IMG/VR virus record: IMGVR_UViG_3300028887_000080
Location: 32,001 to 96,000 of that record
Strand: one strand, 5' to 3'
DNA: 64,000 nucleotides
From: a virus
Taxonomy: Duplodnaviria; Caudoviricetes
Below the pieces are notes generated by a model that made no database searches, had not been told where the DNA came from, and saw only the letters and a list, made by a program, of their open reading frames with translations. Shown one piece after another: positions 1,016 through 61,514 of this stretch (positions are counted from its first letter, which is position 1; each line of letters begins with the position of its first letter). The translations under genes and the position numbers were made by a program.

Positions 1016-2998
1016 ATGAAAAAAGACATTATTATTAAATTGTTGAACACTCCGTCAAAGGACGGCGGTATGCGAAACCTGACAGAAAAAGGCATTATGA
1101 ATAAATTTCCTGATTTATATGAATTTCTTATCGGATTTGATTTTCCAAAAGATTTTACAATAAAGCAAATGATTTATCATTACATCAATGATGATGTTGA
1201 ATGTAATATTGGTGTTTGTGACTGCGGAAAAAGGTGTAAGTTTTTAAGCATAAATGAAGGATATTGCAAACATTGTTCTGTAAAATGTTCAAGAAATTCA
1301 AAGGATGTCAATGAAAAGAGAAAGAACACCTGTTTGAAAAAGTATGGTGTGGACAGTCCTTCAAAATCAGATGTTGTAAAAGAAAAGAGGAAACAAACAT
1401 TTATAGACAAGTTTGGTGTTGAACACCCTATGCTGTTGGATGAAATTAAAGAAAAGATAAAGAATACCAATATGGAACGATATGGGGTTGAATGTGTTTT
1501 TCAATCAAATGAAATAAAAGAAAAGATAAAAGAAACAAACATAGAAAAATATGGTTGGGAGAATCCTATGTGTTCCGATGAAGTAAAAGAAAAGATAAAA
1601 GAAACCAATATGGAAAAATATGGTGTTTCACACCCTTTGCAATCGGATGAAATAAAAGAAAAGATAAAAGAAACCAATATGGAACGATATGGGGTTGAAA
1701 ATGTCGGTCAAACAGATGTAGTGCGTGAGAAGGCAAAGAAAACAAACATAGAGAAATATGGTGTGGAATGCCATTTTCAATCGGACGAAATCAAAGAAAA
1801 GATAAAGAATACCAATATGGAACGATATGGGGTGAAAAATGTTTTTCAATCGGATGAAATAAAAGAAAAGATAAAAGAAACCAATATGGAACGATATGGG
1901 GTGGAAAAACCAGCACAATGTGATTCTGTAAAGGCGAAGGCAATACAGACAACAGTTGAACGATATGGCGTGAAATATCCTATGCAGTCCGATAGAATAA
2001 AAGAAAAGGCAATGGAGACAAACGCCAAACGATATGGCGTGAAATATATAACACAATCAAATGAAATAAAAGAAAAGATAAAAAATACAAATCTTGAAAA
2101 ATATGGAGTGGAATGGTTTTGTCAAACAAGCGCGGCAAGGAATTATTCAAATGATTCAAAACCGAATTTAAGTTTTGCCGCCAGTCTTGATAAGTGCAAT
2201 ATAGTATATGACCGTGAGTATCCAATATCCCATTATTCCTATGATTTTATCGTTGGAAATTATTTGGTTGAAATAAACCCCACAATAACACACAACAGTC
2301 ATATAAGTATATTCAATGGAAAGGTAAAAAACAGTTCGTACCATTCGGATAAATCACAAACTGCTTTGAATAAAGGTTATTTCTGCATACACGTTTGGGA
2401 TTGGGATGACCAAGACAAAATTGTTAATATGCTTAAACCAAAAAATGTAGTATATGCAAGAAATCTTGAAATTCGTGACGTTTCCGTAGAATCGGCAAGT
2501 TTGTTTTTGAACACATATCATTTACAAAACACTTGTAAGGGTCAACGTGTAATATATGGTTTATATATGGACGATATGTTGGTTGAACTTATGTCATTCG
2601 GAAATCCGAGGTATAACAGGAACTATGAATGGGAACTTTTAAGACTTTGCACGCATAAAGACTACACTGTGGTTGGTGGTGCGGAAAGACTTTTCAAGCA
2701 TTTTATATTGACAAATAAACCGAAATCAATCATCAGTTATTGTGACAATTCAAAGTTCAGCGGACACGTCTATGAAAAACTTGGTTTCAAAATCCTTCGT
2801 TCATCCAAACCGACTTGTCATTGGTATAACTTGAAAACAAAACAGCACATTACAGATAATTTATTGAGACAACGTGGGTTTGACCAACTGTTCGGCACAA
2901 ACTATGGAAAGGGTACTTCAAATAAAGAACTTATGCTTGAATATGGGTTTCTTCCTGTATATGACTGCGGGCAGACAAGTTTTGTTTGGAATTTATGA
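1016..2998 (+). CDS. Hef-like putative homing endonuclease: Zn-ribbon + 12 x 23-aa YG repeats + PD-(D/E)XK domain + GNAT/Mom-like C-terminal domain
   Basis: CDCGKRC..CKHCSVKC; repeats TNxE(K/R)YGVxxxxQSDEIKEKIK; YDF..EINPTITH..CIHVWDWD; YHLQ..FGNPRYN..WELLRLC..VVGGAERL..SYCDNSKFSG.VY.KLGF. Confidence 0.7.
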   Translation: MKKDIIIKLLNTPSKDGGMRNLTEKGIMNKFPDLYEFLIGFDFPKDFTIKQMIYHYINDDVECNIGVCDCGKRCKFLSINEGYCKHCSVKCSRNSKDVNEKRKNTCLKKYGVDSPSKSDVVKEKRKQTFIDKFGVEHPMLLDEIKEKIKNTNMERYGVECVFQSNEIKEKIKETNIEKYGWENPMCSDEVKEKIKETNMEKYGVSHPLQSDEIKEKIKETNMERYGVENVGQTDVVREKAKKTNIEKYGVECHFQSDEIKEKIKNTNMERYGVKNVFQSDEIKEKIKETNMERYGVEKPAQCDSVKAKAIQTTVERYGVKYPMQSDRIKEKAMETNAKRYGVKYITQSNEIKEKIKNTNLEKYGVEWFCQTSAARNYSNDSKPNLSFAASLDKCNIVYDREYPISHYSYDFIVGNYLVEINPTITHNSHISIFNGKVKNSSYHSDKSQTALNKGYFCIHVWDWDDQDKIVNMLKPKNVVYARNLEIRDVSVESASLFLNTYHLQNTCKGQRVIYGLYMDDMLVELMSFGNPRYNRNYEWELLRLCTHKDYTVVGGAERLFKHFILTNKPKSIISYCDNSKFSGHVYEKLGFKILRSSKPTCHWYNLKTKQHITDNLLRQRGFDQLFGTNYGKGTSNKELMLEYGFLPVYDCGQTSFVWNL

Positions 2999-3047
2999 AT
3001 TTGATGTTGCGAGTATGGTATAAATATACCGAATATAATTTCCAACT

Positions 3048-3973: not shown

Positions 3974-5794
3974 ATGTACAATATGGCTATCAATGAAAGT
4001 CAGGTTGTTGCTACTTGGGGACAGCACATTAAGGAATCCCTCGGTATCACTGACGAATCAAAACTCCAATGGATGTCGAAATATGCTTATCTTCACGATT
4101 TGCACGACAAGAAGATGATTGCGGAGTCTGTTGACGGACACGCACACCTCAACCCGAATATGAACATCGGCGGTATGGGCGCCATCAATTTCCCTGGTGC
4201 TGCCACCAACAACACCTATGACCGTTCACTCGCAGGTTCAGGTGACAATGTGTACAGCGTTCTTCCTTTGGCACTCCAAGTCGCTGCACAGACCATCGCT
4301 CTTGACTTGGTTCCTGTGGTTCCGATGCAAGGTCCTCACGGTCTGCTCCAATACCTTGACTATGTGTATGAAGGCGGTCGTCTGAACAATATGGGTGGAA
4401 GCGAATACACCTCTCCGTTGTATAACGGCAAACCTGAAAACTTCGCTTCTCCTTATATGATTAAGGCAAACATCACCGCTATGGACGGTGCTGGTACCGA
4501 CGCTGAAAAATTCATTTTCCGTCCGAACTCAACCTATCACTTCAAAGGCAACGATGATTATGAACTGACCTACATCTATCCTAACCGTATTGACGGTAAA
4601 CCGTTGTTCCGCGTGATTGAAAAATCACACTATGCAGGTCAGAAGATGGTCGGTGGAGAAAACGCTTCAACTCCGATTTACGTTCTCTTCGACAATCTTA
4701 TGTCAGACGGTTCCAACAAGACCACTCTCGTCTGCGATGAGTACATTGACAAAGACAATGTTAAGCACACTGACTTTGAAATGACCATCACAGCCGCCAA
4801 CGGTATTGAAAACGTCCGTGCATTTGAAGACCACGTCACTTCATTCAGCGGTGAAGGTTTCCTGAAGAAAACCGTCACAAGCAACAATCCTTACACCCGT
4901 GAAATGGGCGAGGCAACCCCAGGTCGTAAAATCGGTCTCAAGTCCTACACTTTGGACATCAAGGCAATGACCCTGAAAGTTGACTCCGCTATCACCCGTG
5001 AGCAGGTTCAAGACCTCAAGCAGTTCGGTATCGACGCTATTTCCCAAGCAGAAGCTGCACTCGTGAACGAACTCACACAGGGCATCAACAAAATCATCCT
5101 TGAAAAGATGTTCAACCTTGGTGCTCTCAATGCAGTTCAACTTCAAGAAGTTGAAGGTCGCAACCTTATCTCCGCTTGGTTCGTGAATGGTGAACCCGCT
5201 TCCACTACTGACAAAACCACTAACATTTGGTTGGGTGACAAATACAACAAAGAAACAGGCGAACTTGAAGGTAAATATGTTGCCGAAAACATTCCTTACA
5301 CCAACGTCACAGGCGGCGGTGAAGTGATGGGCACCATCCAACGTCGTATTATGACCAAAATCATCGCTGCTTCCAACGTGATTGCAGTCCGTGGTCGTAG
5401 AGGCGCAGGTACCTTCGCAGTCTGCTCCGGCACCATCGGTACCGCTCTCCAAGATTGCGCAGGTTTTATGCCTTATCCGCTTTCTAACACCATCTCCGCT
5501 AACGGCAACAGTCTGTATCCGATTGGCGCACTTGCTGGCATCAGCATCTACGTCGACCCGAATATGGCATTCAACGATATGCGCGTTGTGGTCGGTCGCA
5601 AGGGTAAAGAGAACGAACCAGGCATCGTGTTCTGCCCTTACCTTATGGCAGACAAAGTCGAAACTACAAGCGAGTTCACGATGGCACCTGTCATCTCCCT
5701 CCAATCTCGTTTCGCTTGTGTTGAGGCAGGTATCTACCCGCAGACGCAGTACTACACTTTCAGTATCAAACTCGACGGTGTAAGTCTTGTCTAA
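3974..5794 (+). CDS. Major capsid protein (T4 gp23-like)
   Basis: DLVPVVPMQGPHG, TREQVQDLKQ.GIDA..E..LVNEL..INK.I, RGRRGAGTF, G.LAG.SIYVDP, GIVFCPY, TMAP...SRF. Confidence 0.95.
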   Translation: MYNMAINESQVVATWGQHIKESLGITDESKLQWMSKYAYLHDLHDKKMIAESVDGHAHLNPNMNIGGMGAINFPGAATNNTYDRSLAGSGDNVYSVLPLALQVAAQTIALDLVPVVPMQGPHGLLQYLDYVYEGGRLNNMGGSEYTSPLYNGKPENFASPYMIKANITAMDGAGTDAEKFIFRPNSTYHFKGNDDYELTYIYPNRIDGKPLFRVIEKSHYAGQKMVGGENASTPIYVLFDNLMSDGSNKTTLVCDEYIDKDNVKHTDFEMTITAANGIENVRAFEDHVTSFSGEGFLKKTVTSNNPYTREMGEATPGRKIGLKSYTLDIKAMTLKVDSAITREQVQDLKQFGIDAISQAEAALVNELTQGINKIILEKMFNLGALNAVQLQEVEGRNLISAWFVNGEPASTTDKTTNIWLGDKYNKETGELEGKYVAENIPYTNVTGGGEVMGTIQRRIMTKIIAASNVIAVRGRRGAGTFAVCSGTIGTALQDCAGFMPYPLSNTISANGNSLYPIGALAGISIYVDPNMAFNDMRVVVGRKGKENEPGIVFCPYLMADKVETTSEFTMAPVISLQSRFACVEAGIYPQTQYYTFSIKLDGVSLV

Positions 5795-5966: not shown

Positions 5967-7910
5967 ATGAACAGAGATGAATTGAAACGATTGTTGCTGC
6001 TTCCGAAATCGGAAGGCGGTATAAACCAAATCCAAGAAAGCGGGTTTGCGAAAATGTTTCCTGAAGAATATGCCGAATTGTGCGGCATTGACTTTCCGAA
6101 CGGGTTTACATTCAGGCAGAAACTTTATCATTGGTTGAACGGTGATTTTGGTCTTGCGCTCGGATTCTGCAAGAAATGCGGAAAGCGTTGTTCATTCAAG
6201 AACCTGTCAAAAGGTTATTTTGATTATTGCAGCAATTCCTGTGCGCAGAGTTCCGATGAGAACATAAAAAAAGTGAAAGCGACCAAACTTGAAAGGTACG
6301 GTGAAGAGAACTACAACAACAGGGAAAAATCAAAACGTACTTGTATGGAGGCGTATGGTGTTGACAATCCGTTGAAATCCGGCGATGTTGTGGAAAAGGG
6401 AAAACGCACCAAACTTGAAAGATACGGCGATGAGAATTACAACAACAGAAAAAAGGCGTCGGACACAAAACTTGAAAAGTATGGTGATTCGGCATATAAC
6501 AACCAACAGAAATACAAACAAACCTGCATTGAGAAATACGGAGTGGAAAACGTGTTCCAACTTCAGTCGGTGAGTGAGAAAATACACGACACTATGATGG
6601 ACAAATATGGTGTCGGGCATTCGATGCAGTCTCCTGTTTTTCAAGAAAAGGCGAAAGACACGAACCGCAAGCGATACGGGAGCGACTATGTTATGCAGAA
6701 TGATGAGGTGAAGCATAAGTCCCGTGACACCAATATTGAGAAGTACGGTCACCCTTGCAGTTTGCAGAATGACGAAGTTAAGGAAAAGGCGAGGAACACT
6801 ATGATTGAAAAGTATGGTGTCGAGCACAATTCGCAGACGAAGGAGTTTTGGGAGAAATACAAAGACACTTGTGTGGAGAAATACGGCGTGGAGCACCCTT
6901 CTATGAGCGAAGACGTCAAGGACAAGATGAAGCATACTTGTATTGAACGCTACGGCGTGGAGTATGCGTCGCAGAGCGATGAGTTCAAGAAAAGGGTGAT
7001 GGAGACGAACCGCAGGCTGTACGGGGTTGATTGGTATTGTATGACTTCGGAGTGCAGGTTGCACGGAAACGACAGCAAGGTGAACCTGAATTTCGCCAAG
7101 ACGCTTGAGGATTCAACAATACCGTTCGAGCGTGAATTTCCGTTGGAAGGGTATTCTTACGATTTCAAGGTCGGAAATGTGCTTATAGAACTCAACCCGA
7201 CCATAACCCACAATTCAGCGGTCAACATATATGGTGGGAACCCGAAAGACGAGAACTATCACTTTGCGAAATCGAACACTGCGGAATTGCACGGACTCTC
7301 CTGCATTCATATTTGGGATTGGGACGACAAGGCGAAGATAGTCCGTATGCTGAAACCCAAAACAATTCTGTATGCAAGGAAGTTGGTTCTGCGTGAAGTC
7401 GACGCCGTTTCCTGCGACCGTTTTTTGAACGAGCACCATTTGCAGAATACTTGCAAGGGGCAGTCTGTCTGCTTGGGTCTGTATATGGACGATGTGTTGG
7501 TTGAGGTTATGACATTCGGCAAACCGAGATACAACAAGAATTACGAATGGGAACTTTTGAGGCTTTGCACACATTGCGATTACAAGATTGTAGGCGGAGC
7601 GGAACGATTGTACAGTCATTTTGTGAAGTCATACATCCCGAAATCAATCATAAGTTATTGCGACAACAGCAAGTTCAACGGCGGAGTGTACAAAAGACTC
7701 GGAATGTCGTTGCTGCGCCTGTCCAAACCGAGCAAACATTGGTGGAACGGAAAACGGCATATCACGGACAACTTTTTGAGGCAGCGCGGGTTTGACCAAC
7801 TGTTCGGCGCCAACTACGGAAAGGGGACGGACAACAACGAACTTATGCTTGAACACGGTTTTTTGCCAATCTATGATTGTGGACAGATGACTTTTGTTGT
7901 TGAATTTTAA
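5967..7910 (+). CDS. Hef-like repeat nuclease paralog 2 (~12 YG repeats)
   Basis: Same architecture as 1016..2998; ATG start at 5967 chosen. Confidence 0.7.
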   Translation: MNRDELKRLLLLPKSEGGINQIQESGFAKMFPEEYAELCGIDFPNGFTFRQKLYHWLNGDFGLALGFCKKCGKRCSFKNLSKGYFDYCSNSCAQSSDENIKKVKATKLERYGEENYNNREKSKRTCMEAYGVDNPLKSGDVVEKGKRTKLERYGDENYNNRKKASDTKLEKYGDSAYNNQQKYKQTCIEKYGVENVFQLQSVSEKIHDTMMDKYGVGHSMQSPVFQEKAKDTNRKRYGSDYVMQNDEVKHKSRDTNIEKYGHPCSLQNDEVKEKARNTMIEKYGVEHNSQTKEFWEKYKDTCVEKYGVEHPSMSEDVKDKMKHTCIERYGVEYASQSDEFKKRVMETNRRLYGVDWYCMTSECRLHGNDSKVNLNFAKTLEDSTIPFEREFPLEGYSYDFKVGNVLIELNPTITHNSAVNIYGGNPKDENYHFAKSNTAELHGLSCIHIWDWDDKAKIVRMLKPKTILYARKLVLREVDAVSCDRFLNEHHLQNTCKGQSVCLGLYMDDVLVEVMTFGKPRYNKNYEWELLRLCTHCDYKIVGGAERLYSHFVKSYIPKSIISYCDNSKFNGGVYKRLGMSLLRLSKPSKHWWNGKRHITDNFLRQRGFDQLFGANYGKGTDNNELMLEHGFLPIYDCGQMTFVVEF

Positions 7911-7921: not shown

Positions 7922-9655
7922 ATGATGAATGCGGAATGTGACACTACTATGGAAGAACTCAAAAATTTTCTCAATGCCAAACCCGTGTACTTGCAGGAAA
8001 GCAAATTTGCAGTGAAGTTTCCCGATGAGTATGTCACATTGTGCAGTTGGAAGTTTCCCGACGGGTTCACATTCCAGCAGAAACTTTATCATTATGTCAA
8101 TGGCGACAATATATTCAGACTTGGATTGTGTCCCACTTGTGGAAAGCGTTGCAGGTTCAAGTCATTTGGCAGAGGTTACTTTGAGTATTGCAGCAAATCC
8201 TGTATCTATACAAAGGAGCGTTCCGAAAAGTGCAAGGAGACAAAACTTGAACGATATGGTGACTCCAACTACAATAACATAGAAAAGGCGAAGCGTACTT
8301 GTATTGACAGATATGGTGTGGAGAACGTCTCGCTTGTTGAGAGCATATCGGAGCAGAAATCGGAAACAAGACGTAACAGGACATCGGATGAGAAAGCGGC
8401 GACAAGGGAGAAAATAGCACGGACGTGGGCGGCAAAGACAGATGATGACGTAAACAGGCATATAGAGAGTATCCGACAGGGAAAACTTGAAAAGTATGGG
8501 GACGTCAATTTTTCAAATCCGCAAAAGACAAAGGATACTAAACTTGAAAGATATGGGACACCAACCTATGTGAACCCTGAAAAAATGGTCGCGACAAAGC
8601 GTGCGAAGGCATTGGATGCAGACCCGAACATAATCAGTTTCAATACTGACGGCAGCGTGGTCAGGAGATGTGATAATCCATCCTGTGACAGGTGTGATGA
8701 AAAGTGCTATACCACATTCACGAGACTTCATTATGACAGAATCAGACTTGGGTGTATCACCTGCACCAAACTAAATCCCATTGACAGGCACACGAGCGGA
8801 GGTGAGAATGAGTTGTATGAATATGTCAGGGGGGTGTACGGAGGAACCATAGTGAAGAATGACAGGGGTGTCCTCGGAGGTCAGGAACTTGACATCTATC
8901 TTCCTGACAAGAAACTCGCATTTGAGTTCAACGGGTTGTATTGGCACAGTGATTTATACAAGGACAAGAACTATCACTTTGAGAAATCAAAATCCTGTAT
9001 GGAGAAAGGTGTGAGACTTGTCCATATATGGGAGGATGATTGGCGTTACAGGAGGGATATTGTGGAGAACCTCATATCAGGAATATTGGGAAAGCACAAT
9101 ACTTACATAAACGCAAGGAAATGTTCGGTGGGAAAGGTGGATGCAAAAACAGCGCGAGTGTTTTGTGATAAATACCATATACAGGGTTATGTGAACTGTG
9201 CTGTCAGATATGGTATTTTCTATAATGGAGAACTTGTGATGGTCTCGTTATTTGGAAAGCGCAGGCGGATTTGCGGAGGTGTCCCGAAAGAGAATGTTTG
9301 GGAACTTTACAGGATGTGTTCGGTGTTCGGAACGAGAGTTCGCGGAGGTGCGAGCAGATTGCTTGTGCATTTCATCAATGATGTCAGACCGAACTCCATA
9401 GTAACTTTTGCCGACTCCTGTATTTCTGACGGTGGAGTCTATGAGAAAATGGGTTTTGTGAAGGACGGTGTTGTGCCGCCATCCTACTATTGGGTTGTTG
9501 GCATTGAACGTGTGCCGAGATATAGGTTCCAAAAGTCAATGCTTGAGGAGTGCAAGGACAACTCTGACCTTACGGAGGATGAGGTGATGCGGTCAAGAGG
9601 ATGCCTCAAAATATGGGATGCGGGAAAAGTGAGATACATCATTGATATATCGTAA
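7922..9655 (+). CDS. Hef-like nuclease paralog 3 (fewer repeats, second Zn site, ELDIYLP..AFEFNGLYWHS nuclease variant)
   Basis: CPTCGKRC; YG repeats; ELDIYLPDKKLAFEFNGLYWHS..HIWEDDW; YHIQG..WELYRMC..GGASRL..TFAD..G.VYEKMGF..IWDAG. Confidence 0.7.
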   Translation: MMNAECDTTMEELKNFLNAKPVYLQESKFAVKFPDEYVTLCSWKFPDGFTFQQKLYHYVNGDNIFRLGLCPTCGKRCRFKSFGRGYFEYCSKSCIYTKERSEKCKETKLERYGDSNYNNIEKAKRTCIDRYGVENVSLVESISEQKSETRRNRTSDEKAATREKIARTWAAKTDDDVNRHIESIRQGKLEKYGDVNFSNPQKTKDTKLERYGTPTYVNPEKMVATKRAKALDADPNIISFNTDGSVVRRCDNPSCDRCDEKCYTTFTRLHYDRIRLGCITCTKLNPIDRHTSGGENELYEYVRGVYGGTIVKNDRGVLGGQELDIYLPDKKLAFEFNGLYWHSDLYKDKNYHFEKSKSCMEKGVRLVHIWEDDWRYRRDIVENLISGILGKHNTYINARKCSVGKVDAKTARVFCDKYHIQGYVNCAVRYGIFYNGELVMVSLFGKRRRICGGVPKENVWELYRMCSVFGTRVRGGASRLLVHFINDVRPNSIVTFADSCISDGGVYEKMGFVKDGVVPPSYYWVVGIERVPRYRFQKSMLEECKDNSDLTEDEVMRSRGCLKIWDAGKVRYIIDIS

Positions 9656-9704
9656 AAAATACATTGTTTTTTGTTATATTTAATAATAACAAAATTTATT
9701 GAAT

Positions 9705-10208
9705 ATGCCTGATTTTTCTTTTACATACAAAAATGGCGCGGTGCTTGAGTACGACGTTGGAAATTTTGACGCTTGGTGTGTATATCTGACAAGACCTGAC
9801 GGCAAGCGGATTGCTCCGAGAGACAGGGAGTATTTTTCAAGGATAAAGGATTATGACAAGGTGATTGGAGGCGGTGCTGTCTACAAAGACCTTGTCAGGA
9901 TATACAACAAGACAAACAATGTCCCGAACCCACTTGTGCTTGAGAAAATAGAGGAGTATTGCCACAGGCGCTATGACGCTTGCTGTGGAAGCGATTATGC
10001 AACTTCAATGGCAATAGACTATGGAATAATCTATATGGGTATGGTCGCGGAGGAAAACAAGAAAAACTCCGTGCTCGGAAAACGTGTCAAAAGACTTGGT
10101 TTTCATCAGGTTCTTGTTGAGAATATGGATTGCAGTTGTGCCGCGTCATACAGCAAAGGAGTCAAATCGGACGAACTTGACAAACTTTGTAAAAAATATG
10201 GTTTTTGA
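9705..10208 (+). CDS. Hypothetical protein
   Basis: ORF behind TTATATT promoter motif; G.FD.WCVY and Y.GMVAEENK..LGKRVKRLG motifs. Confidence 0.65.
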   Translation: MPDFSFTYKNGAVLEYDVGNFDAWCVYLTRPDGKRIAPRDREYFSRIKDYDKVIGGGAVYKDLVRIYNKTNNVPNPLVLEKIEEYCHRRYDACCGSDYATSMAIDYGIIYMGMVAEENKKNSVLGKRVKRLGFHQVLVENMDCSCAASYSKGVKSDELDKLCKKYGF

Positions 10209-14643: not shown

Positions 14644-14695
14644 ATCTGTTTTTTTTATTATTGTCGGTTTGTATTTATAAACCGCTGCTTGTTAG

Positions 14696-14768
<73 letters not shown>

Positions 14769-14769
14769 T

Positions 14770-15069
14770 TTACACGTCCTTTGACATAAGGACGCCTATT
14801 TTTCCTTCCGTGAAAAGTCTTGCCTGTTCGAGCGTGCAAAAGATTGCGGGTCGTTCGTTGAACTCATTGTCTATGCAGATTGCGACTCTCGGTTCGGACG
14901 GTTCCTCCACATCCTCAAACCAACCGCTTCCGTTCATACAGACCTCGCTTTCATCATCGACCTCATATACGACATAGCGTTTTGCCGTTGAAATTTCAAT
15001 GCTTCCGTCAATGGCGGTTCCGAAAATATAGTTCACGCTTTCTTCTTTGATAATGTATTTGCTTTCCAT
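14770..15069 (-). CDS. Hypothetical protein within the tRNA operon
   Basis: 99-aa ORF with A-rich leader. Confidence 0.6.
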   Translation of the reverse strand: MESKYIIKEESVNYIFGTAIDGSIEISTAKRYVVYEVDDESEVCMNGSGWFEDVEEPSEPRVAICIDNEFNERPAIFCTLEQARLFTEGKIGVLMSKDV

Positions 15070-15095
15070 ATTCTTGATTTTTGTTTTTTAATTTG

Positions 15096-15166
15096 TTGTC
15101 GGTCAGAGGGTCGAACTCCGATTAGCGGAACCAGAATCCGCTGTGCTGCCATTACACCAACCGACA
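15096..15166 (-). tRNA. tRNA-Gln(CTG)
   Basis: gcgga-TT CTG GT-tccgc. Confidence 0.9.
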
Positions 15167-15168
15167 TT

Positions 15169-15369
15169 ACAAGACCATTTGAGACAATGCCGCCAACTCT
15201 TCCACGTCGTTTCCGATACGCTTAAACAAGGGGTTACATCAATGCTCACCCCCCAACGGACAGTACGTCCGCTGTATCCGACCCGTATCTCAAATCTTGG
15301 GGTGACGTCACTTCCCCGTGAGGACACGTTGTTCTCGGCATAGTCGTCATTGCCCACTTTGGTCATTGT
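15169..15369 (-). ncRNA. Putative ~200-nt structured RNA between tRNA-Gly and tRNA-Gln
   Basis: Ends pair (acaagacca / tggtcattgt, one bulge); internal atttgaga/tctcaaat and cggac/gtccg helices. Confidence 0.5.
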
Positions 15370-15370
15370 G

Positions 15371-15442
15371 AGCGGTGGACGGGATTTGAACCCGCAACCC
15401 CGACCTTGGCAAGGTCGTATTCTGCCGTTGAACTACCACCGC
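15371..15442 (-). tRNA. tRNA-Gly(GCC)
   Basis: cgacc-TT GCC AA-ggtcg. Confidence 0.93.
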
Positions 15443-15588
15443 ATCGTCTCTTTTCATCAGACTTCCTTGCAATATCCGAATCTTGTACTACCGGGCATCA
15501 ATAAGCACATCCGTCCTATTGACATTTTGAGACACACCCGTTTAATTGTTGTCTATCGTGAAACAATCTAAAGACCGCCTATGTGTTT

Positions 15589-15661
15589 GCAAGACCATAG
15601 GATTTGAACCTCCATTTCATCATTGGACGGATGATATTCTACCAAATTGAACTATCGCCGC
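15589..15661 (-). pseudogene. Degenerate tRNA-like element (loop CC GTC CA)
   Basis: D-loop agttcaatttggtagaa and GGTTCAAATCC present, but acceptor and T stems are mismatched. Confidence 0.55.
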
Positions 15662-15688
15662 CGGACGAAATTTTGGACATTTCGTTTG

Positions 15689-15759
15689 CAGGAGTGGAAG
15701 GACTCGAACCTCCGTCTACGGTTTTGGAGACCGTCGTTCTACCACTGAACCACACTCCT
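15689..15759 (-). tRNA. tRNA-Trp(CCA)
   Basis: acggt-CT CCA AA-accgt. Confidence 0.93.
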
Positions 15760-15785
15760 ATTCACCGTTGAACTACAGACTCAAG

Positions 15786-15868
15786 TGCGGACGGTGAGAG
15801 TCGAACTCACACGGGGATACCCCCACCACCCCCTCAAGGTGGCGCGCCTGCCATTTCGCCACGTCCGC
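15786..15868 (-). tRNA. tRNA-Leu(GAG)
   Basis: ccacc-TT GAG GG-ggtgg; long variable arm. Confidence 0.92.
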
Positions 15869-15879
15869 ATAATCTCATA

Positions 15880-16046
15880 GATGCAACCAATCACTTTCCG
15901 CTTTGGCGGTGTATTCGGACTACGGGTCGATTACCTCCGACGTCCTAATTACGTCCATTCTCTCTAACGGGCACTCGATGTCCATCAGTGAAGTTCTATT
16001 CGGGGCGTCGTCACGTTTCCCGCTACGGGTCTATATTGGTTGCATC
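15880..16046 (-). ncRNA. Putative ~167-nt structured RNA
   Basis: Perfect 12-bp closing stem gatgcaaccaat / attggttgcatc. Confidence 0.55.
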
Positions 16047-16187
16047 CGTTTAAGAAATTCGGCAAACGAGTTTTGTATCGTCATCTTAAACTAAATGTTG
16101 ACACAACCGCATCGCATTCTGCGGTCGCTTTGAAACGCCAACAATGTGCCCACAACGAAGGGTCACAAATCTTGCCGTATCCCATTG

Positions 16188-16261
16188 TACCGGCAGGTGG
16201 ATTTGAACCACCGTCTCCGCCTTATGAGGGCGGCGCAAGAAACCGACTCCGCTATGCCGAT
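16188..16261 (-). tRNA. tRNA-Met/Ile2(CAT)
   Basis: ccgcc-CT CAT AA-ggcgg. Confidence 0.88.
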
Positions 16262-16266
16262 GTTTT

Positions 16267-16432
16267 GAAAACAAAAACCAACAGGTGTTTTGATTAAACT
16301 ATGTATTCCTTTTTCTTGCTTATCGGGTCTCGATGACCCGTGGAACCCACCTCTGATTTGCCTTGCAGCGTCAGTGATTCTCTGTTGTCAATGCACGGAA
16401 CAGTTATGCCCTATCGCAATGTTTTTGTTTCC
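16267..16432 (-). ncRNA. Putative ~165-nt structured RNA
   Basis: Closing stem aaacaaaaac / gtttttgttt; internal cgggtc/gacccg hairpin. Confidence 0.4.
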
Positions 16433-16435
16433 AAG

Positions 16436-16524
16436 CGGAGGGGGTAGGATTTGAACCCACGGAACCCTTGCGGGTTCGGCGGTTTTCAAGACCGCTGCAA
16501 TAAACCAGACTCTGCCACCCCTCC
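16436..16524 (-). tRNA. tRNA-Ser(TGA)
   Basis: gcggt-CT TGA AA-accgc; long variable arm. Confidence 0.93.
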
Positions 16525-16587
16525 AAAAATACTCCTGCTTTAAGGCAAGTCAGGTGAACCTTTGATATATCATTGATATATCGCTTG

Positions 16588-16661
16588 TGGAGCGTGGGGG
16601 AGTCGAACCCCCGACCCCCTGCGTGCAAAGCAGGTGTTCTGGCCAACTGAACTAACGCCCC
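16588..16661 (-). tRNA. tRNA-Ala(TGC)
   Basis: cctgc-TT TGC AC-gcagg; G3:U70. Confidence 0.94.
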
Positions 16662-16774
16662 GTTTACAACCTTTACAGACCGTATGGTTACACACGGGAA
16701 GTATAACCGAACCATACGTCGGTGTGCGCTGAACCCGTATCCGCAAACGGCAGCAACCGTTCCTAATCGGACAT

Positions 16775-17160
16775 CACGGACTTTACTTTTTTATGCACCT
16801 CGCCTTTACAGCGGCACGCACACCATTTCACGCAAACCATAAAGATTGTGGACAGACTCTTTGGTGTTTATCGCTTTGTCTCCGACTTGCATCGTCGCAC
16901 TTGCGGTGTGCGAGACCGTGCCTTCTTTTTTATATATGTCATCCCTTCGGGCATTGGGCAGAAAGGAAAACATAATATATTTGAGAATTTCTCTCTCACG
17001 CGCTTGCGTGGTTCCTGTCGGAATGCTCCTTTCCAATACATTGCAGGGAACACGTCCCCGCGACCGACAGTGGTCGCCCATATATCATTTCAGGGCATTG
17101 CTCCGACAACGGGATGAAAAAGCAAGCGAATCTTATGTTCGCCAAAAAATAAAGTCCGTG
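16775..17160 (-). ncRNA. Putative ~386-nt large structured RNA
   Basis: 11-bp perfect closing stem cacggacttta / taaagtccgtg; several GNRA-capped hairpins on the minus strand. Confidence 0.6.
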
Positions 17161-17166
17161 TCGGAA

Positions 17167-17244
17167 TGGTAGCGCGGACGGGACTCGAACCCGCAATCTC
17201 CACCTTGAAAGGGTGGCGACTTAAACCAGTTTGTCCACCGCGCC
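17167..17244 (-). tRNA. tRNA-Glu(TTC), CCA encoded
   Basis: ccacc-CT TTC AA-ggtgg. Confidence 0.93.
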
Positions 17245-17397
17245 GTTCAGTGCGGTATAACCCGCACGTCCAACTGTTTGTTCATCTTGGAAAGTTGTCA
17301 ACCTGCACGACTTCCTTTTTTGAGTTTTCCGCGCACTGCCGAGTTGTACGGACGAAACTTGAGAATGAAAAAAAAATAGTCAAATAAAAAAACATTG

Positions 17398-17471
17398 GGT
17401 GGAGAGTGGGACTCGAACCCACGACCTACGGAACCACAATCCGCCGTTCTGCCAACTGAACTATCCCCACC
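17398..17471 (-). tRNA. tRNA-His(GTG) with encoded G-1
   Basis: gcgga-TT GTG GT-tccgt; G-1:C73. Confidence 0.93.
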
Positions 17472-17475
17472 AAAT

Positions 17476-17898
17476 AAGTGATTGATGTGTTGTTACACCA
17501 AATTCTCCGACGGCGGTTTCACGGACATCTCAACGGGCGACTAACTTGGCAACTACGCCCTGCGCCGAACTTTTCTTCATAGTTCGGACACCCCCGCTTT
17601 CGCGGTGAAGATTAAGAGCAATCTCCTCTCGTACTGTCGCTCCTTATCCGTCGTACCTGTCTCCGACACCGAATTGCACTTGCGCCACATCAAGGAGACA
17701 CCCGTGTTTCAACGGGATTTTAATTGAGGACAACCGTGTATTCGTGCTTGTGACTCCGTGAGGTTGCCCATACCGCACCAAGTTCGCTGGTATGGTGTTC
17801 TTGTGACGTAAATCAACTATGCGCATAGTAGTATGTAGTCACTACCTCTTGAAACTCTTTAGAGGATGGACACTATCAGTCCCACCTTTCAATCACTT
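17476..17898 (-). ncRNA. Putative ~423-nt large structured RNA
   Basis: 10-bp perfect closing stem aagtgattga / tcaatcactt filling the Ser-His spacer; many internal hairpins. Confidence 0.65.
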
Positions 17899-17899
17899 G

Positions 17900-17987
17900 C
17901 GGAGAGTGAGGGACTTGAACCCCCGCGCCGTTTTCACGACCTATCTGTTTAGCAAACAGACCCCTTCACCGACTTGGGTAACTCTCC
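17900..17987 (-). tRNA. tRNA-Ser(GCT)
   Basis: tctgt-TT GCT AA-acaga; long variable arm. Confidence 0.92.
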
Positions 17988-17992
17988 AAAAA

Positions 17993-18152
17993 AGCAAAAT
18001 CTTACACAAGACGAGTTGCGCTTTAACTCTCTTGTCCTTCGCTGTGGCGAGACCACGGATTGCTCCGCACTTTTGTTGTTAAACTTCCACAGACCCCATT
18101 CTCATCGGAATCCCAAGCGGAAAAGATTTTATCCGCACCCTTTGATTTTGCT
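17993..18152 (-). ncRNA. Putative ~160-nt structured RNA
   Basis: 9-bp closing stem agcaaaatc / gattttgct; internal gcgga/tccgc and acaaga/tcttgt helices. Confidence 0.5.
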
Positions 18153-18155
18153 ATG

Positions 18156-18299
18156 CTGTTATGGCGGGACTCGAACCCGCAGTACCGCAGTAATCCTGAA
18201 CCGCGGGCAACCTTTACGTCTCACTCCCAAGACTTCTAATCTGACCGACAATGGTGACGGTTTCAAGCGAGGGTTTGCCAATTCCCCTTCACATAACAG
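18156..18299 (-). ncRNA. Expanded tRNA-like RNA (~144 nt) with insertions in the anticodon and variable regions
   Basis: Acceptor ctgttatg/cataacag, Leu-like D-loop aattggcaaa, perfect T arm gcgggTTCGAGTcccgc; ~85 nt between the D and T arms. Confidence 0.7.
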
Positions 18300-18318
18300 T
18301 TGTGTGTTGATGAATTTG

Positions 18319-18397
18319 TAGGGGAGGTGGGACTCGAACCCACATACACCAATTACAGAATTAACGACTGTATATAAGACAGGACTGATACACCCCT
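18319..18397 (-). tRNA. Atypical tRNA-Ile(TAT)-like with truncated D arm and long variable region
   Basis: aggggtg/ctcccct acceptor; ctgt-CT TAT AT-acag; intact T arm. Confidence 0.7.
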
Positions 18398-18485
18398 ATG
18401 CGATGCCGAGAATCCCTGTCATAAATTTGCCCGCCAACGGCGGACACCCATCAACAGATGGGGCAAGGCATTGCTTGTGAAAGAG

Positions 18486-18559
18486 TGCTCCCAGCAGGAC
18501 TTGAACCTACGACCCCCTGATTATGAGTCAGGCGCACTAACCAACTGTGCTATGGGAGC
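18486..18559 (-). tRNA. tRNA-Met/Ile2(CAT)
   Basis: cctga-CT CAT AA-tcagg. Confidence 0.9.
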
Positions 18560-18565
18560 ATAGAA

Positions 18566-18927
18566 ACAAGGCGGTTTTTTTAGCGAGTACAAATTAACGG
18601 TTTGTTGCTTGAAAATAGTGGTTTGCGGAATCCGCCTTTATATGTTCAGTATTATGGAAAAAGAGAAAATTCAAAAAAACAAGGCAGGGGTTGTTAGCGA
18701 GTACAAATTAAAAGTTTGTTGCTTGGATAGGTTTGCTGCACCTGCCTTTATTATTCAGTATTATGGAAAGAGAAGATTCAAAAAAAAAACAAGGGAGATT
18801 TGTTGCGTTTCAAAGTTACAGTTTGATGCCTACAATGTTTGCTGAACCTCCCTTTAGATACAAGGTGATTTTTTTGCTTGGTTGAATTTGGATTTCACTT
18901 TGCAATGCGTTTGCTGCAATCACCTTT
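18566..18927 (-). ncRNA. Tandem array of four small covarying hairpin RNAs carrying anticodon stem-loop mimics (18566-18639, 18679-18749, 18789-18855, 18860-18927)
   Basis: Minus-strand consensus AAAG-stem-nnCAGCAAA...ASL...stem'-CTTGT; stems differ in sequence but keep pairing. Confidence 0.75.
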
Positions 18928-18939
18928 TTGTTTTAATTG

Positions 18940-19012
18940 TATCCCCGCAGGGACTCGAACCCCAATCTTGAGTTCCGTGGACTCACATTCTAATCCATTG
19001 AACTACGGGGAC
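18940..19012 (-). tRNA. tRNA-Arg(ACG)
   Basis: tgagt-CC ACG GA-actca (C33). Confidence 0.88.
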
Positions 19013-19117
19013 TTATATGGGCGGGGTTATCGTCATACCTTACTATAGTTATACGCCGAATATGATGTTATCCCCTGCGTAAACTTGTTCCAATGTACGG
19101 TTGGAGTTTACGTTTAG

Positions 19118-19190
19118 TGGGAAGGGGTGGAGTCGAACCACCATCATCGGATTTTCAGTCCGCTGCATAGACCTGCTTTGCTACCTTCCC
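19118..19190 (-). tRNA. tRNA-Phe(GAA)
   Basis: cgga-CT GAA AA-tccg. Confidence 0.9.
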
Positions 19191-19269
19191 GTTTTGCGGA
19201 TGTGTGTCTCGCGACAGGCGTCCGCAACTGATAAATATAAAAAAACACAAATAAAATGATTATCACAAG

Positions 19270-19340: not shown

Positions 19341-19363
19341 GTGAGGCGCGCGTCCGCGCCCGT

Positions 19364-55016: not shown

Positions 55017-55916
55017 ATGGCAAACAAAGATTCTCTCGGCGACCGTATGAAAGAATACGAGGGTGTGTCGAGATACAAACTGACACGGCGTATGCCCGTT
55101 GTAATCCGCATCGACGGAAAATCATTCCATACATTCACAAGATGGTTCAACAAACCCTATGACGTCGTACTGTCCGACACGATGGGACGCACAATGAAAT
55201 ATCTCTGCGAGAATATTCAGGGATGCGTGTTCGGATACACGCAGTCCGACGAAATCACACTCGTCCTCGTGGACTATGAGAAACTGAACACCGCTGCGTG
55301 GTTCGACAACACAGCGCAGAAGATGTGCAGCATCGCCGCTTCTATGGCGACGATGGCGTTCAACAAGTTCTTCGGCGAGGAGGTCGGCAGGTTCTCAAGC
55401 AAAGTGTCCGACCCGCAATGGTATGACTATTACGGACTGCACCGCCTTGACGGAGGTATAGACCAAGAGCGAATCGCCAAACTCAATGTCACATACCGAA
55501 AGGCATACGAACGAGGAGCGATGTTCGACGCAAGGGTGTTCAACGTCCCGAAGGAAGATGTGACCAACTGCGTCCTGTGGAGGCAGCAGGACGCGACCCG
55601 CAACAGCATTGAGATGCTCGGACGCGCATTTTTCACGCACAATCAGTTGTTCAAGAAAAACTGCTCCGACATTCAGGATATGCTGATGACTTGGCACAAC
55701 ATCAACTGGAACGACGTTGACACGCGCTTCAAGCGCGGGTTTTCCTGCATAAGGAAAGAAATGGAGGTTTCTATGCCCGACACCTCAACCGCTTCGCCAA
55801 CGGCAACCGCATCCTGCGGAAAGACGACACGACGAGTGTGGGTGTTGGATATGGAGATGCCGATTATCACGCAGGACAGGGACTATATCGACAAACTTGT
55901 TTTCATCGGGGAATGA
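55017..55916 (+). CDS. tRNA(His) guanylyltransferase Thg1-like protein (3'-5' polymerase)
   Basis: DRMKEYE, IRIDGKSFH.FT, GYTQSDEI, QKM.S..AS, FDARV, WRQ.DATRNS. Confidence 0.93.
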   Translation: MANKDSLGDRMKEYEGVSRYKLTRRMPVVIRIDGKSFHTFTRWFNKPYDVVLSDTMGRTMKYLCENIQGCVFGYTQSDEITLVLVDYEKLNTAAWFDNTAQKMCSIAASMATMAFNKFFGEEVGRFSSKVSDPQWYDYYGLHRLDGGIDQERIAKLNVTYRKAYERGAMFDARVFNVPKEDVTNCVLWRQQDATRNSIEMLGRAFFTHNQLFKKNCSDIQDMLMTWHNINWNDVDTRFKRGFSCIRKEMEVSMPDTSTASPTATASCGKTTRRVWVLDMEMPIITQDRDYIDKLVFIGE

Positions 55917-58206: not shown

Positions 58207-58307
58207 AATCCATTTATATATTTTTCGGTTGGAACGCCTGTGTGGATTTCGTTCCGTTATTATTTATATGAGGTGTTTTTTTGTTCCATTTTTTTGTTAT
58301 ATTAAAT

Positions 58308-59599
58308 CGGAATTATCCCTTTTAGTCTTGTAAAAATGTGAGTGATATAAATATAGTACAGTATTTCAATCAGATGGAAAGAACGTACACATACAAGTTC
58401 AGGTTGTATCCGAACAAGGAGCAAGAGATTTATCTTGCCAATGTATTTGGATGTTGCAGACTTGTGTACAACCATTTCCTTGATGAGAAGAAACAACAAT
58501 ATGAAGAAACAAAAACAAGTGATTCATACAATGTTCAATCAGGTAAACTGACACTACTCCGCAAGACTGATGGGTATGAGTTTCTAAAAAATGTTCCTTT
58601 ACAAGTTTTGCAGTGTAGTTTACGAAATATGCACACTGCATACGAGAATTTTTATAAACACAGAAGTTCCTATCCGAAGTTCAAGAACAGAAGGGACAGA
58701 CAGTCGTTCAAACTACCACAGGAGCAATCCTTCAAAATAAAAGATAACAAACTTTACATCCCAAAACTAAAAAGCGGGATTGACATTGTAATGGAACGTG
58801 GGATTGTAGGCAAAATTTGCTTTGTAACCATCTCAAAAAACAAGGCAGGCAGATACCACATAGCAATTACTGTTAAACAGGATTACATACCTTATGGAAA
58901 GACCAATCGTTCAGTCGGTCTTGACCTCGGCATAAAGGATTTCGTCATCACAAGTGACGGAATGAAATACAAGAACCACAGGAGCATAATCAGGACATTA
59001 AAACGCAAACTAAAACATAACCAAAGGCATCTGTCAAGAAAGATACACGGAAGCAAGAGATACGAAAACCAAGTGTTGAAATGCAACCGAATCTATCAGA
59101 AGATAACAGATGTCAAGACCGATTACATACACAAAATCACTAATGAACTTGTCAGAAACTATGATGTGATAAAGGTTGAAGATTTGAACATCAGAGGGAT
59201 GATGAAGAACCACAAGTTGGCAGAGGCAATATCAGAATGTAATTGGTATCAGTTCATACAGACGCTTGAATACAAGTGCTTGTGGAATGAAAAGGAACTT
59301 ATAAAGATAGACCGTTTCTATCCGTCAAGTCAGATGTGCAGTGAATGTGGTTATGTTGAGAAAAAAGTCAGAAACCTAAATGTAAGGGAATGGACTTGCT
59401 GCAACTGCGGTTGTCATCACGACAGGGATGTCAATGCGGCAAGGAACATTTTGAAATATAATTCGGTGAGGAACACCGAAAACAGTCGTGGAGTTGTGAA
59501 ACAACTGAATGAAAAACCTAATTTGATTAGTGATTGTTCGGACAACTGTGAAGCGACTATTGAACTTGATAATTTACAAGATTAAAAGGGATAATTCCG
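58308..59599 (+). mobile_element. TIR-bounded non-autonomous transposon carrying tnpB (27-bp TIRs, 8-bp TSD TATTAAAT)
   Basis: Left TIR 58308-58334 and right TIR 59573-59599 (26/27 match); tattaaat at 58300-58307 and 59600-59607. Confidence 0.88.
58374..59585 (+). CDS. tnpB: RNA-guided endonuclease TnpB (IS200/IS605 type), RuvC triad intact
   Basis: YKFRLYPN.EQ, FGCCR.VYN, VGLDLGIK, VEDLN, PSSQMCSECG, WTC..CG..HDRDVNAARNI. Confidence 0.95.
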   Translation: MERTYTYKFRLYPNKEQEIYLANVFGCCRLVYNHFLDEKKQQYEETKTSDSYNVQSGKLTLLRKTDGYEFLKNVPLQVLQCSLRNMHTAYENFYKHRSSYPKFKNRRDRQSFKLPQEQSFKIKDNKLYIPKLKSGIDIVMERGIVGKICFVTISKNKAGRYHIAITVKQDYIPYGKTNRSVGLDLGIKDFVITSDGMKYKNHRSIIRTLKRKLKHNQRHLSRKIHGSKRYENQVLKCNRIYQKITDVKTDYIHKITNELVRNYDVIKVEDLNIRGMMKNHKLAEAISECNWYQFIQTLEYKCLWNEKELIKIDRFYPSSQMCSECGYVEKKVRNLNVREWTCCNCGCHHDRDVNAARNILKYNSVRNTENSRGVVKQLNEKPNLISDCSDNCEATIELDNLQD

Positions 59600-59618
59600 T
59601 ATTAAATAAATACGAAGT

Positions 59619-61514
59619 ATGGACAAATCGGAACTTTACAGCATAATCTTGGAGGACAGGCACATTCAGGAGAATAAATTCAGGATTGAGTATCCTGAAT
59701 TTTATGCAGAATTGTGCGATATTGAATTTCCTGAAGGTTTCACGTTCAGACAGAAACTTTACCATTACTTCAACGATGACATATCGTTTGGGCTTGGTGT
59801 ATGCGAATGCGGCAATCGCTGCGAGTTCATCTCGTTGAACGAAGGTTACAAGGCGCATTGTTCAAGGAGTTGTGCCACGAAGTCCTTGTCCGTGAAAGAG
59901 AAAAGAAAAAAAACCTGCCTTGAAAAATATGGGGTCGAGCACGAATCCAAATGCGAGGTGATAAAGGAAAAGAAACGGGAGACCTGCAAGTCGCATTACG
60001 GGGTTGAATATCCTATGCAGTCGGATGAGGTCAGAAAGAAATCAATGGAAACAAACATCGCCAATATGGGTGTTGCGTGTCCGTTTGAATCCGAAACGGT
60101 GAAGGAAAAGTCAAGAGAGACCTGTATGTCGAAATATGGCGTGGAACACCATTCAAAATCAGAGGAGATAAAAGAAAAGAAACGGAAGACGTCTATGGAA
60201 CATTATGGCGTGGACTGCCCGTTGAAATCGGATGAAGTGAAGGGAAGGATAAAGGAAACGGTTAAAGAGAAATACGGCGTGGAATACGTTATGCAGTCGG
60301 AGGATGTGAAAGGGCGTGCAAGGAAAACCAACCTTGAGCGATATGGAACCGACTGTGTCTTGAAACTTGACAGCACAAAGGAGAAAGCAAAAAGAACAAG
60401 TATTGAAAAATACGGGGTTGAACATCCTATGCAGTCGGAGGATGTGAAACGGAAAGTTTCGTCCACTTGCAAGAAACACTATGGCGTCGATTATCCCATA
60501 CAGTCGGACATAATAAAGGAAAGGACAAAGCATACCAACATTGAGAGATATGGTGTTGAATACGCAACGCAATCGGAGGAGTTCAAAAAGAAACTTATTG
60601 AAACGAACATTGAAAAATACGGTGTGCCGTACACCTGTATGCTCGATGGCGTCCGCAGACATTCAAACGATTCCAAACCGAACTTGAATTTCGCCGAACT
60701 TCTGTCGGAAAACGGGATTGGATACGAGCGCGAGTTTTCTGTCGGGAAATATGTATATGACTTCAAGGTCGGGGACACGCTTGTTGAAATCAACCCGACA
60801 ATCACGCACAATTCGTTTCTTGACATATTCGGCGGGAATGCAAAGGACAGGAAGTATCATTTTGATAAAACGTCGGTTGCTGCGGAAAACGGTTACCGTT
60901 GCATACACGTTTGGGATTGGGACGACTCCGCGAAGATAGTGAATATGCTGAAACCGAAGGAAACGCTATATGCAAGGAAACTGTCGGTGGCGGAGGTGAA
61001 CCCTGTGGAAGCGGACGTTTTCCTGTCAAAGCATCATATACAGGGAACCTGCAAGGGTATGTGCGTGTGCGTCGGACTTTATTTGGACGGCGCGATTGTC
61101 GAGATTATGGCTTTCGGGAAACCGAGATACAACAGGAAATGCGAATGGGAACTTCTGCGCCTGTGCACCGACGGCAACTATATCGTTGTCGGCGGGGCGG
61201 AGCGGTTGTTCTCGCACGCAGTCCGCGAGTACGGTATGCACAGCGTGGTGTCATATTGCGACAATTCAAAGTTCACAGGTGATGTGTATGCAAGACTCGG
61301 TTTCAAAAAAACTTCTTTTTCTTTCGGAAAGCATTGGTTCTGCAAAAAGGACAAACGCAGCCACATAACCGACAATATGCTTCGGCAGCGCGGGTTCGAC
61401 CAACTGTTCGGAACCGACTACGGAAAGGGCACGAGCAACGAAACCCTTATGCTTGAGCGGGGATTCCTTCCTGTGTACGACGCAGGTCAATACACCTTCC
61501 TGTGGACGGCATAG
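59619..61514 (+). CDS. Hef-like repeat nuclease paralog 4 (11 YG repeats)
   Basis: Same architecture as 1016..2998. Confidence 0.7.
   Translation: MDKSELYSIILEDRHIQENKFRIEYPEFYAELCDIEFPEGFTFRQKLYHYFNDDISFGLGVCECGNRCEFISLNEGYKAHCSRSCATKSLSVKEKRKKTCLEKYGVEHESKCEVIKEKKRETCKSHYGVEYPMQSDEVRKKSMETNIANMGVACPFESETVKEKSRETCMSKYGVEHHSKSEEIKEKKRKTSMEHYGVDCPLKSDEVKGRIKETVKEKYGVEYVMQSEDVKGRARKTNLERYGTDCVLKLDSTKEKAKRTSIEKYGVEHPMQSEDVKRKVSSTCKKHYGVDYPIQSDIIKERTKHTNIERYGVEYATQSEEFKKKLIETNIEKYGVPYTCMLDGVRRHSNDSKPNLNFAELLSENGIGYEREFSVGKYVYDFKVGDTLVEINPTITHNSFLDIFGGNAKDRKYHFDKTSVAAENGYRCIHVWDWDDSAKIVNMLKPKETLYARKLSVAEVNPVEADVFLSKHHIQGTCKGMCVCVGLYLDGAIVEIMAFGKPRYNRKCEWELLRLCTDGNYIVVGGAERLFSHAVREYGMHSVVSYCDNSKFTGDVYARLGFKKTSFSFGKHWFCKKDKRSHITDNMLRQRGFDQLFGTDYGKGTSNETLMLERGFLPVYDAGQYTFLWTA

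Follow-up and report, generated by a model that had tools for sequence, protein, structure and literature searches.

Four probable Hef-type homing endonuclease genes with helical-repeat arms and Mom-like tails beside structural genes of an uncultured phage

The DNA analyzed here, called the window below, is a stretch of 64,000 nucleotides (bases 32001-96000) of the 124-kb IMG/VR virus contig IMGVR_UViG_3300028887_000080 (Duplodnaviria; Caudoviricetes), and because CheckV rates this contig as about 39% complete, the source points to an uncultured jumbo phage with a genome of roughly 300 kb. The window carries four paralogs, H1, H2, H3, and H4 (Table 1), very probably Hef-type homing endonuclease genes of the free-standing kind that belong to the EDxHD or Vsr-like lineage. 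Their products share one layout, consisting of an N-terminal four-cysteine zinc ribbon, an array of DUF7487 repeats, a Vsr-like nuclease domain, and a Mom-like GNAT tail. An earlier reading of the letters alone (the original prediction) had proposed that the open reading frames (ORFs) at 1016, 5967, 7922, and 59619 combine a zinc ribbon, up to 12 repeats, a nuclease, and a GNAT-like tail, and this composition was confirmed by the translations, the Pfam matches, and the fold model. When the whole contig was searched with H1, the four genes were the sole copies found.

Family membership can be read directly from the profile matches. H1, H2, H3, and H4 match PHROG 3339 with E values of 4.5e-110, 8.9e-92, 2e-110, and 2.3e-98, respectively, and they also fall in PHROG 559; both groups are annotated as "homing endonuclease". 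The zinc-ribbon pattern C-x(1-2)-C ... C-x3-C is kept in all four copies. Searches with tblastn gave matches to genes annotated as Hef, homing endonuclease, or F-LimVIII in phages of Campylobacter, Dickeya, and Klebsiella, and the relatives of near-full length at E < 1e-5 number more than 4,692, which is a lower bound. As genes, H1–H4 are an ordinary and very common selfish element of large phages. The set of Hef and Hef-like genes used for comparison includes Hef of phage U5, reportedly described by Sandegren and co-workers in 2005, together with F-LimIII, VII, VIII, and X of Dickeya phage LIMEstone1, hef of Campylobacter phage vB_CcoM-IBB_35, and genes of RaK2 and K64-1. They share membership in PHROG 3339/559 with H1–H4, and among the matches listed the identity is about 27-35% across roughly 86-96% of the length. 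In addition, these genes are likewise free-standing, adjoin conserved structural or replication genes, and occur in several copies per genome. In contrast, H1, H2, and H4 have long DUF7487 arms of 11-12 units, while H3 is closer to the shorter canonical form. Much of this background is in print: Hef-type genes were placed in the EDxHD family by Taylor et al. 2011 (PMC3239194), multi-copy Hef-like genes adjoining structural genes were previously described in LIMEstone1, and Mom domains of jumbo phages fused to nucleases of the restriction endonuclease (REase) fold were published by Iyer et al. 2021 (PMC7824862); the latter fusions have the same combination of GNAT domain and REase-fold nuclease as H1–H4.

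The nuclease domain has a canonical and a variant form. H3 carries the canonical motif, roughly ELD...FEFNGLYWHSD...HIWEDDW, and phmmer aligned this domain with the catalytic domain of I-Bth0305I (PDB 3r3p), the EDxHD prototype, placing equivalents of D196, N208, and H213 in register; the counterparts of these three residues in Vsr are D51, H64, and H69. The sequence link to the prototype is weak, with an E value of 0.011, and was obtained for H3 only. H1, H2, and H4 carry the variant motif YDF...EINPTITHNS...YH..K...H.WDWDD, in which D36, E45, N/D47, H52, Y68-H69, K72, H85, and D88-W89-D90 are invariant or nearly so in 45 relatives of the H1 type, and a profile built from the H1-type nuclease aligns collinearly with the nuclease of H3. 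Because the nuclease residues are intact, all four copies look catalytically competent. I-Bth0305I resembles H1–H4 in that an N-terminal DNA-binding region is followed by a Vsr-like nuclease with the catalytic equivalents present, but it is intron-encoded, has two NUMOD/helix-turn-helix (HTH) motifs instead of a repeat array, and lacks a GNAT tail. A scan of the window for Rfam-type RNAs found no group I intron and no RNA family other than tRNA; H1–H4 are therefore free-standing and not intron-borne. A homodimer prediction for the nuclease with the Mom-like part gave a score of 0.00, which weighs neither for nor against dimerization.

The position of the genes and their distribution among relatives agree with mobility. 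The original prediction had noted that the genes flank highly conserved genes as homing endonucleases do, and this was borne out, since the tail sheath, capsid, and prohead protease genes adjoin them, with H2 and H3 forming a tandem pair 3' of the capsid gene. In a relative contig, L007, which is 80% identical to this phage in the capsid, 85% in the protease, and 86% in o184, the junction between o184 and the protease gene measures about 230 bp, versus 3.4 kb here, where it holds a TnpB element and H4. The presence and absence of H4 at this junction is observed, and it fits what is expected of a mobile free-standing homing gene. H2 and H3 are absent after the capsid gene of L007, where a C5-methylase-like gene lies in their place. 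Similarly, H1 is absent after the sheath gene of another relative contig, L089 (sheath 85% identical), in which the gene order beyond this point is not kept. For H2 and H3, too, synteny with the relative is not conserved.

The arm between the zinc ribbon and the nuclease is matched by Pfam DUF7487 with E values of 4e-67 in H1, 1e-53 in H2, 2e-7 in H3, and 2e-67 in H4. Its YG anchors are spaced exactly 23 residues apart 11 times consecutively in H1, 10 times in H4, and 7 times in H2; in H3 the array amounts to just four degenerate units, interrupted by a 61-aa insert. The repeat frame consists of K2, T6, Y11, G12, V13, Q18, S19, and K23; the example triplets of the original prediction, DSP, EHP, ECV, ENP, SHP, KYP, and EWF, hold true in H1. 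A shorter, 19-residue version of the unit (K-L-E-R-Y-G-D-x-N-Y-N-N), with four loop residues fewer, occurs at 6267-6560 in H2 and 8225-8560 in H3, where it alternates with 23-residue units. An AF2 model of the N-terminal 395 residues of H1, built from a 44-sequence alignment, has a mean pLDDT of 91, and in every unit a helix of 15 residues runs from position 20 to position 11, a loop of four residues follows from G12 to x15, and P16 to Q18 make a short turn. The arm is thus confidently predicted to fold as a solenoid with one helix per repeat. Approximately 39% of its residues are charged, and it is mildly basic, with a net charge of +6 to +9. Foldseek with the arm model found no solved analogue, the best match being a transcription activator-like effector (TAL effector, TALE) at E 0.33 and TM 0.08; VIA against 48,161 chains also found none, its best matches (Z 3.2) being long coiled coils. 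A profile of two repeat units searched against the PDB gave nothing meaningful and no solved relative, the likeness of the arm to NUMOD3 was not significant (E 3), and neither DUF7487 nor a description of its repeats was found in the full text of the searched literature.

The array is not confined to this type of gene. Among proteins no longer than 362 residues, more than 3,400 carry a DUF7487 array, and Pfam scans of ten short array proteins confirmed fusions to several nuclease families. For instance, one protein (P0225) has a GIY-YIG domain at its N-terminus, another (P0143) has T5orf172/MUG113 at its C-terminus, and three (P0148, P0189, and P0130) combine DUF7487 with DUF559/Vsr-like nucleases. 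Further partners are treble-clef or Ros/MucR zinc fingers and, in longer relatives, HTH_28 or C2H2 fingers; candidate fusions to HNH and N6_N4 methylase in the ESM Atlas are leads only. Because the array is shuffled among unrelated nuclease families and stands on either side of them, it is probably a modular DNA-binding arm. This is the same pattern that reportedly led Sitbon and Pietrokovski in 2003 to define NUMODs, the nuclease-associated modular DNA-binding domains said to occur in I-TevI and the Seg proteins, that is, a module without catalytic activity that accompanies several unrelated nuclease domains, on one side or the other. DUF7487 differs from NUMODs in that it has no significant likeness to NUMOD3 or to a solved DNA-binding domain and forms a long tandem array predicted to build a solenoid. 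Phage nucleases carrying the arm number in the thousands and belong to three catalytic families or more, and the arm has no solved structural analogue; should its repeats prove to engage DNA in register, the arm would represent a new natural scaffold for DNA targeting.

The tail at the C-terminus was studied through an AF2 model of the last 286 residues of H1, which cover the nuclease and the tail and reached a pLDDT of 95. The best two Foldseek matches were both chains of Mu Mom (8bv8), at E 2e-8 and 3.5e-7, ahead of ordinary acetyltransferases; VIA gave Z 12.4 to Mom (root-mean-square deviation 2.5 over 129 residues, 19% identity), tied with other GNAT proteins, which reached up to Z 13.6. 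The GNAT/Mom-like tail named in the original prediction is accordingly a true Mom-like GNAT domain by model confidence and best fold match. PHROG 1384, "Mom-like", matches residues 473-600 of H2 (numbered from the TTG start at 5946) at E 3.9e-7. The Pfam Mom family (PF25680) has a cut-off of 27.1 bits, which none of the copies reaches: H3 scores 22.9 bits (E 7.6e-5), H2 and H4 score about 13.5, and H1 is unlisted. A sequence profile of the whole C-terminal alignment found nothing meaningful in the PDB, and comparing the profile of the family with that of Mu Mom gave, taken alone, a weak match (E 0.15); the residue mapping therefore rests also on a MAFFT alignment bridged by a stand-alone Mom homolog and on the fold match.

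It has been reported that Mom moves glycine from Gly-tRNA(Gly) to the N6 of adenine, that R111, S124, and R151 are essential in the authors' own tests, that mutation of D149 greatly lowers activity according to earlier work cited there, and that H58, Y59, and Y159 contribute while an HTH-like insert is required (Silva et al. 2026, PMC13219725). In an alignment of Mu Mom, the stand-alone Mom homolog of this phage, and H1–H4, which is uncertain by about one residue, Mom R111, D149, G156, and Y159 fall on invariant columns, corresponding to R169, D203, G209, and Y212 of the family (numbered on the 286-residue C-terminal fragment of H1), each kept in 45 of 45 relatives. The place of S124 is occupied by Glu in H1, H2, and H4, as in 30 of the 45 relatives, and by Ser in H3. 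The place of R151 is N/L or S and is not kept in any of the four copies, with a conserved Lys two residues on. A two-helix segment takes the place of the HTH-like insert of Mom. The tail thus resembles Mu Mom in its GNAT fold, in the equivalents of R111, D149, and Y159, and in its two-helix insertion, and it differs at S124 in three copies, at R151 in all, and in falling short of the Pfam cut-off. By its sequence, the tail is a true and strongly constrained Mom relative that fails at two of Mom's four essential positions, which makes canonical momylation unlikely; a role as an extra DNA- or base-binding or assembly module beside the nuclease is more likely, though of low certainty. Outside the window, at G000:C1:7483-8454 (L090:1984-2955), the same genome encodes the stand-alone Mom homolog of 323 aa, which passes the Pfam cut-off with 33.6 bits and matches PHROG 1384 at E 5e-12. 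It adjoins a DNA polymerase-like ORF, and the phage may modify its adenines.

For H1–H4 as homing endonucleases, the following cycle is proposed. In a mixed infection, the protein would bind the gene-free allele in the DNA of a related phage, through the zinc-ribbon module at its N-terminus and through the long arm of helical DUF7487 repeats; this arm would act in a NUMOD-like manner, contacting a long stretch of DNA with modest specificity. The Vsr-like domain would then cut near the insertion point, and recombinational repair would copy the gene and neighboring markers into the cut genome. The Mom-like tail would most likely serve as an extra DNA- or base-binding or assembly module and probably not as a canonical Mom glycyl-transferase. 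We infer these steps, cleavage and homing included, from the domain make-up and the positions of the genes. Several points weigh against this assignment. The experimental anchors are U5 Hef and I-Bth0305I only, and both are distant from H1–H4. The C-terminal model of H1 is of high confidence, but its Foldseek and VIA lists are filled by GNAT chains, so that residues 1-105, the nuclease, were barely probed against Vsr. The Mom-like pocket of R169, D203, and Y212 is invariant, which is more conservation than a passive module seems to need. Finally, the comparison with an empty site is clean for H4 only, where the difference might be owed to the TnpB element.

The original prediction had gone further and proposed that the repeats could be a TALE-like array; in such an array, each 23-aa repeat would read one or a few base pairs through loop residues 14-17 and the order of the repeats would spell the target. 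The variation bearing on this was taken from the 29 complete units of the window and from 511 unique units of 124 family members. Some observations agree with such a reading: 82% of the 511 repeats have N, Y, H, or C at position 15; some H1 repeats are up to 91% identical in DNA, with units 3 and 8, compared by eye, changed at positions 13-15 and 19-20; and, as the fold of the arm has no solved analogue, no known binding mode is excluded. In 36 close relatives (likely orthologs, mean identity 82%), position 15 differs between repeats at 0.90 and within the cluster at 0.12, and positions 15 and 17 are both repeat-specific yet kept in this cluster; from the position-15 and cluster evidence, each repeat therefore has an identity kept by selection. 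A one-repeat-one-base code nevertheless finds no support. Variation is diffuse, with entropy highest at positions 17 and 3, then 20, 5, 15, and 16, in both sets of units, and even the "constant" positions retain 1.5-2.3 bits. The term "hypervariable" used earlier for the residues after YGV is an overstatement: loop positions 15-17 rank with the most variable ones, yet variation is about equal at helix positions 3, 5, 8, 20, and 21. The mean pairwise DNA identity between repeats is 0.66 in H1, 0.55 in H4, and 0.53 in H2, and in H2 and H4 the differences are spread along the unit; the TALE-like look comes mainly from H1, in which several units are recent copies of each other. There are 183 distinct triplets at positions 15-17 in the 511 repeats, the commonest (NVF) amounting to 4%, so no small set of dominant classes emerges. 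Covariation links positions 15-17 among themselves and to positions 18 and 22, which is the behavior of packing residues, and in a second, more diverged cluster they drift as the rest of the unit does. H3, moreover, has few and degenerate units, and in I-Bth0305I specificity comes mostly from the nuclease dimer, not from the arm (PMC3239194). TAL effector repeats are alike in being tandem and helical, with a loop of restricted alphabet at one position, but they are 34 aa long with two helices, whereas a DUF7487 unit has 23 aa and one long helix, and the DUF7487 repeats are far from identical, lack dominant di-residue classes, and show no structural likeness to TALE in the model comparison. The TALE-like array is therefore regarded as very improbable. 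An equally slim chance is given to a broader idea, in which DUF7487 would be a new class of tandem-repeat DNA recognition: the repeat-specific loop residues, with N/Y/H/C at position 15, P/V/A/S at 16, and a variable residue at 17, would recognize the target in short consecutive steps, the arm being natural, re-orderable, and common to several nuclease families, and an adenine at the site of cleavage would be flipped or marked by the Mom-like tail.

The conserved tail gives rise to a different alternative, in which the proteins would cut and protect in the manner of a restriction-modification system: the Mom-like domain would acylate the phage's own adenines, and the fused nuclease would attack unmodified DNA of the host or of competing phages. 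This has been proposed in print for jumbo-phage proteins in which Mom is fused to an REase (Iyer et al. 2021, PMC7824862), and it agrees with the strong constraint on the domain, including the invariant equivalents of R111, D149, and Y159. The stand-alone Mom homolog above the Pfam cut-off in the same genome makes adenine modification of this phage's DNA plausible, and the phage encodes two tRNA-Gly, Gly-tRNA being the donor used by Mom (PMC13219725). Against this stand the Glu at the essential S124 and the loss of the essential R151 already described, and thousands of proteins have this arm and nuclease but no Mom-like domain. Four paralogs, each by a conserved structural gene, with H4 present or absent between relatives, form a homing pattern and not that of a defense enzyme. 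Cutting and protecting is on this account considered unlikely, and the function of the tail would settle whether such proteins are pure homing enzymes or cut-and-protect weapons. It is also conceivable, although decidedly doubtful, that some or all of the copies are decaying relics, no longer active as nucleases and kept as passengers. The homing cycle itself predicts decay after fixation, and H3 has lost most of its repeats and gained the insert in its arm; on the other side, all four frames are open and full-length, and the invariant nuclease residues and the conserved tail are present in all of them. The Hef-type homing endonuclease thus remains the preferred reading of H1–H4.

Table 1. Positions of the H1–H4 genes, their domains, and adjoining genes in the window.
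Feature	Position	Strand	Basis or remark
H1, probable Hef-type homing endonuclease gene, 660 aa	1016..2998	+	Between tail sheath and capsid genes; ORF, PHROG 3339, DUF7487
H1 repeat arm, 12 units of 23 aa (residues 100-375)	1313..2140	+	YG spacing; AF2
H1 Vsr-like (EDxHD-type) nuclease domain	2141..2440	+	Invariant residues in 45 relatives; profile match to H3
H1 Mom-like GNAT domain	2441..2995	+	AF2, Foldseek, VIA
H2, probable Hef-type homing endonuclease gene, 647 aa from ATG	5967..7910	+	Directly 3' of capsid gene; PHROG, DUF7487
H2 repeat arm, 12 units, 23-aa and 19-aa forms mixed	6267..7058	+	YG spacing
H3, probable Hef-type homing endonuclease gene, 577 aa	7922..9655	+	4 degenerate repeats, Cys-rich insert, canonical EDxHD-like nuclease
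H4, probable Hef-type homing endonuclease gene, 631 aa	59619..61514	+	Directly upstream of prohead protease gene
H4 repeat arm, 11 units of 23 aa	59898..60656	+	YG spacing
IS605-type TnpB element	58298..59603	+	Neighbor, not a family member; Pfam OrfB_IS605, Cas12f1-like TNB, HTH_OrfB_IS605
Tail sheath gene	3-947		Neighbor, upstream of H1
Major capsid protein gene	3974-5794		Neighbor, between H1 and H2
Prohead protease gene	61584-63677		Neighbor, downstream of H4

Regarding the gene boundaries, possible ATG starts are found at 5967 for H2 and 7922 for H3, and H2 has an alternative TTG start at 5946. In the public protein set, H1 is represented only by a 439-aa product (P0005) that is 100% identical over 67% of the query, and the gene caller's product therefore falls short of the full ORF. 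When the two ends of the window were searched as DNA against 50,697 phage records, no near-identical match came up. The TnpB-only element ends 15 bases upstream of H4, and in L007 a short remnant at 9550-9887, just upstream of the capsid gene, matches both ends of the TnpB element. In a 363-kb relative, a 619-aa protein encoded right after the capsid gene (L072:13877-15736) has an N-terminal helical/zinc-ribbon module as in H1–H4, at 29-37% identity over about 60-105 residues; a by-eye reading of this protein as a methylase fusion was dropped, its C-terminal part having no Pfam or PHROG match.

Elsewhere in the window, the ORF following H3 (9699-10208) encodes a DUF7004 protein (E 4e-52) to which no function is assigned. 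On the minus strand, 14695-22615 holds an array of about 26 tRNA genes for 18 of the 20 amino acids (no Cys, Tyr, or Val), in which the two tRNA-Gly have the anticodons GCC and UCC. Within it, an ARAGORN "tmRNA" at 20210-20592 overlaps a tRNA-Lys and looks doubtful, and a 156-nt Rfam tRNA match at 20043-20198, which has no ARAGORN call, could be an interrupted tRNA. In addition, a gene for a Thg1-like tRNA-His guanylyltransferase lies at 55017-55916 (Pfam Thg1, E 5e-30).

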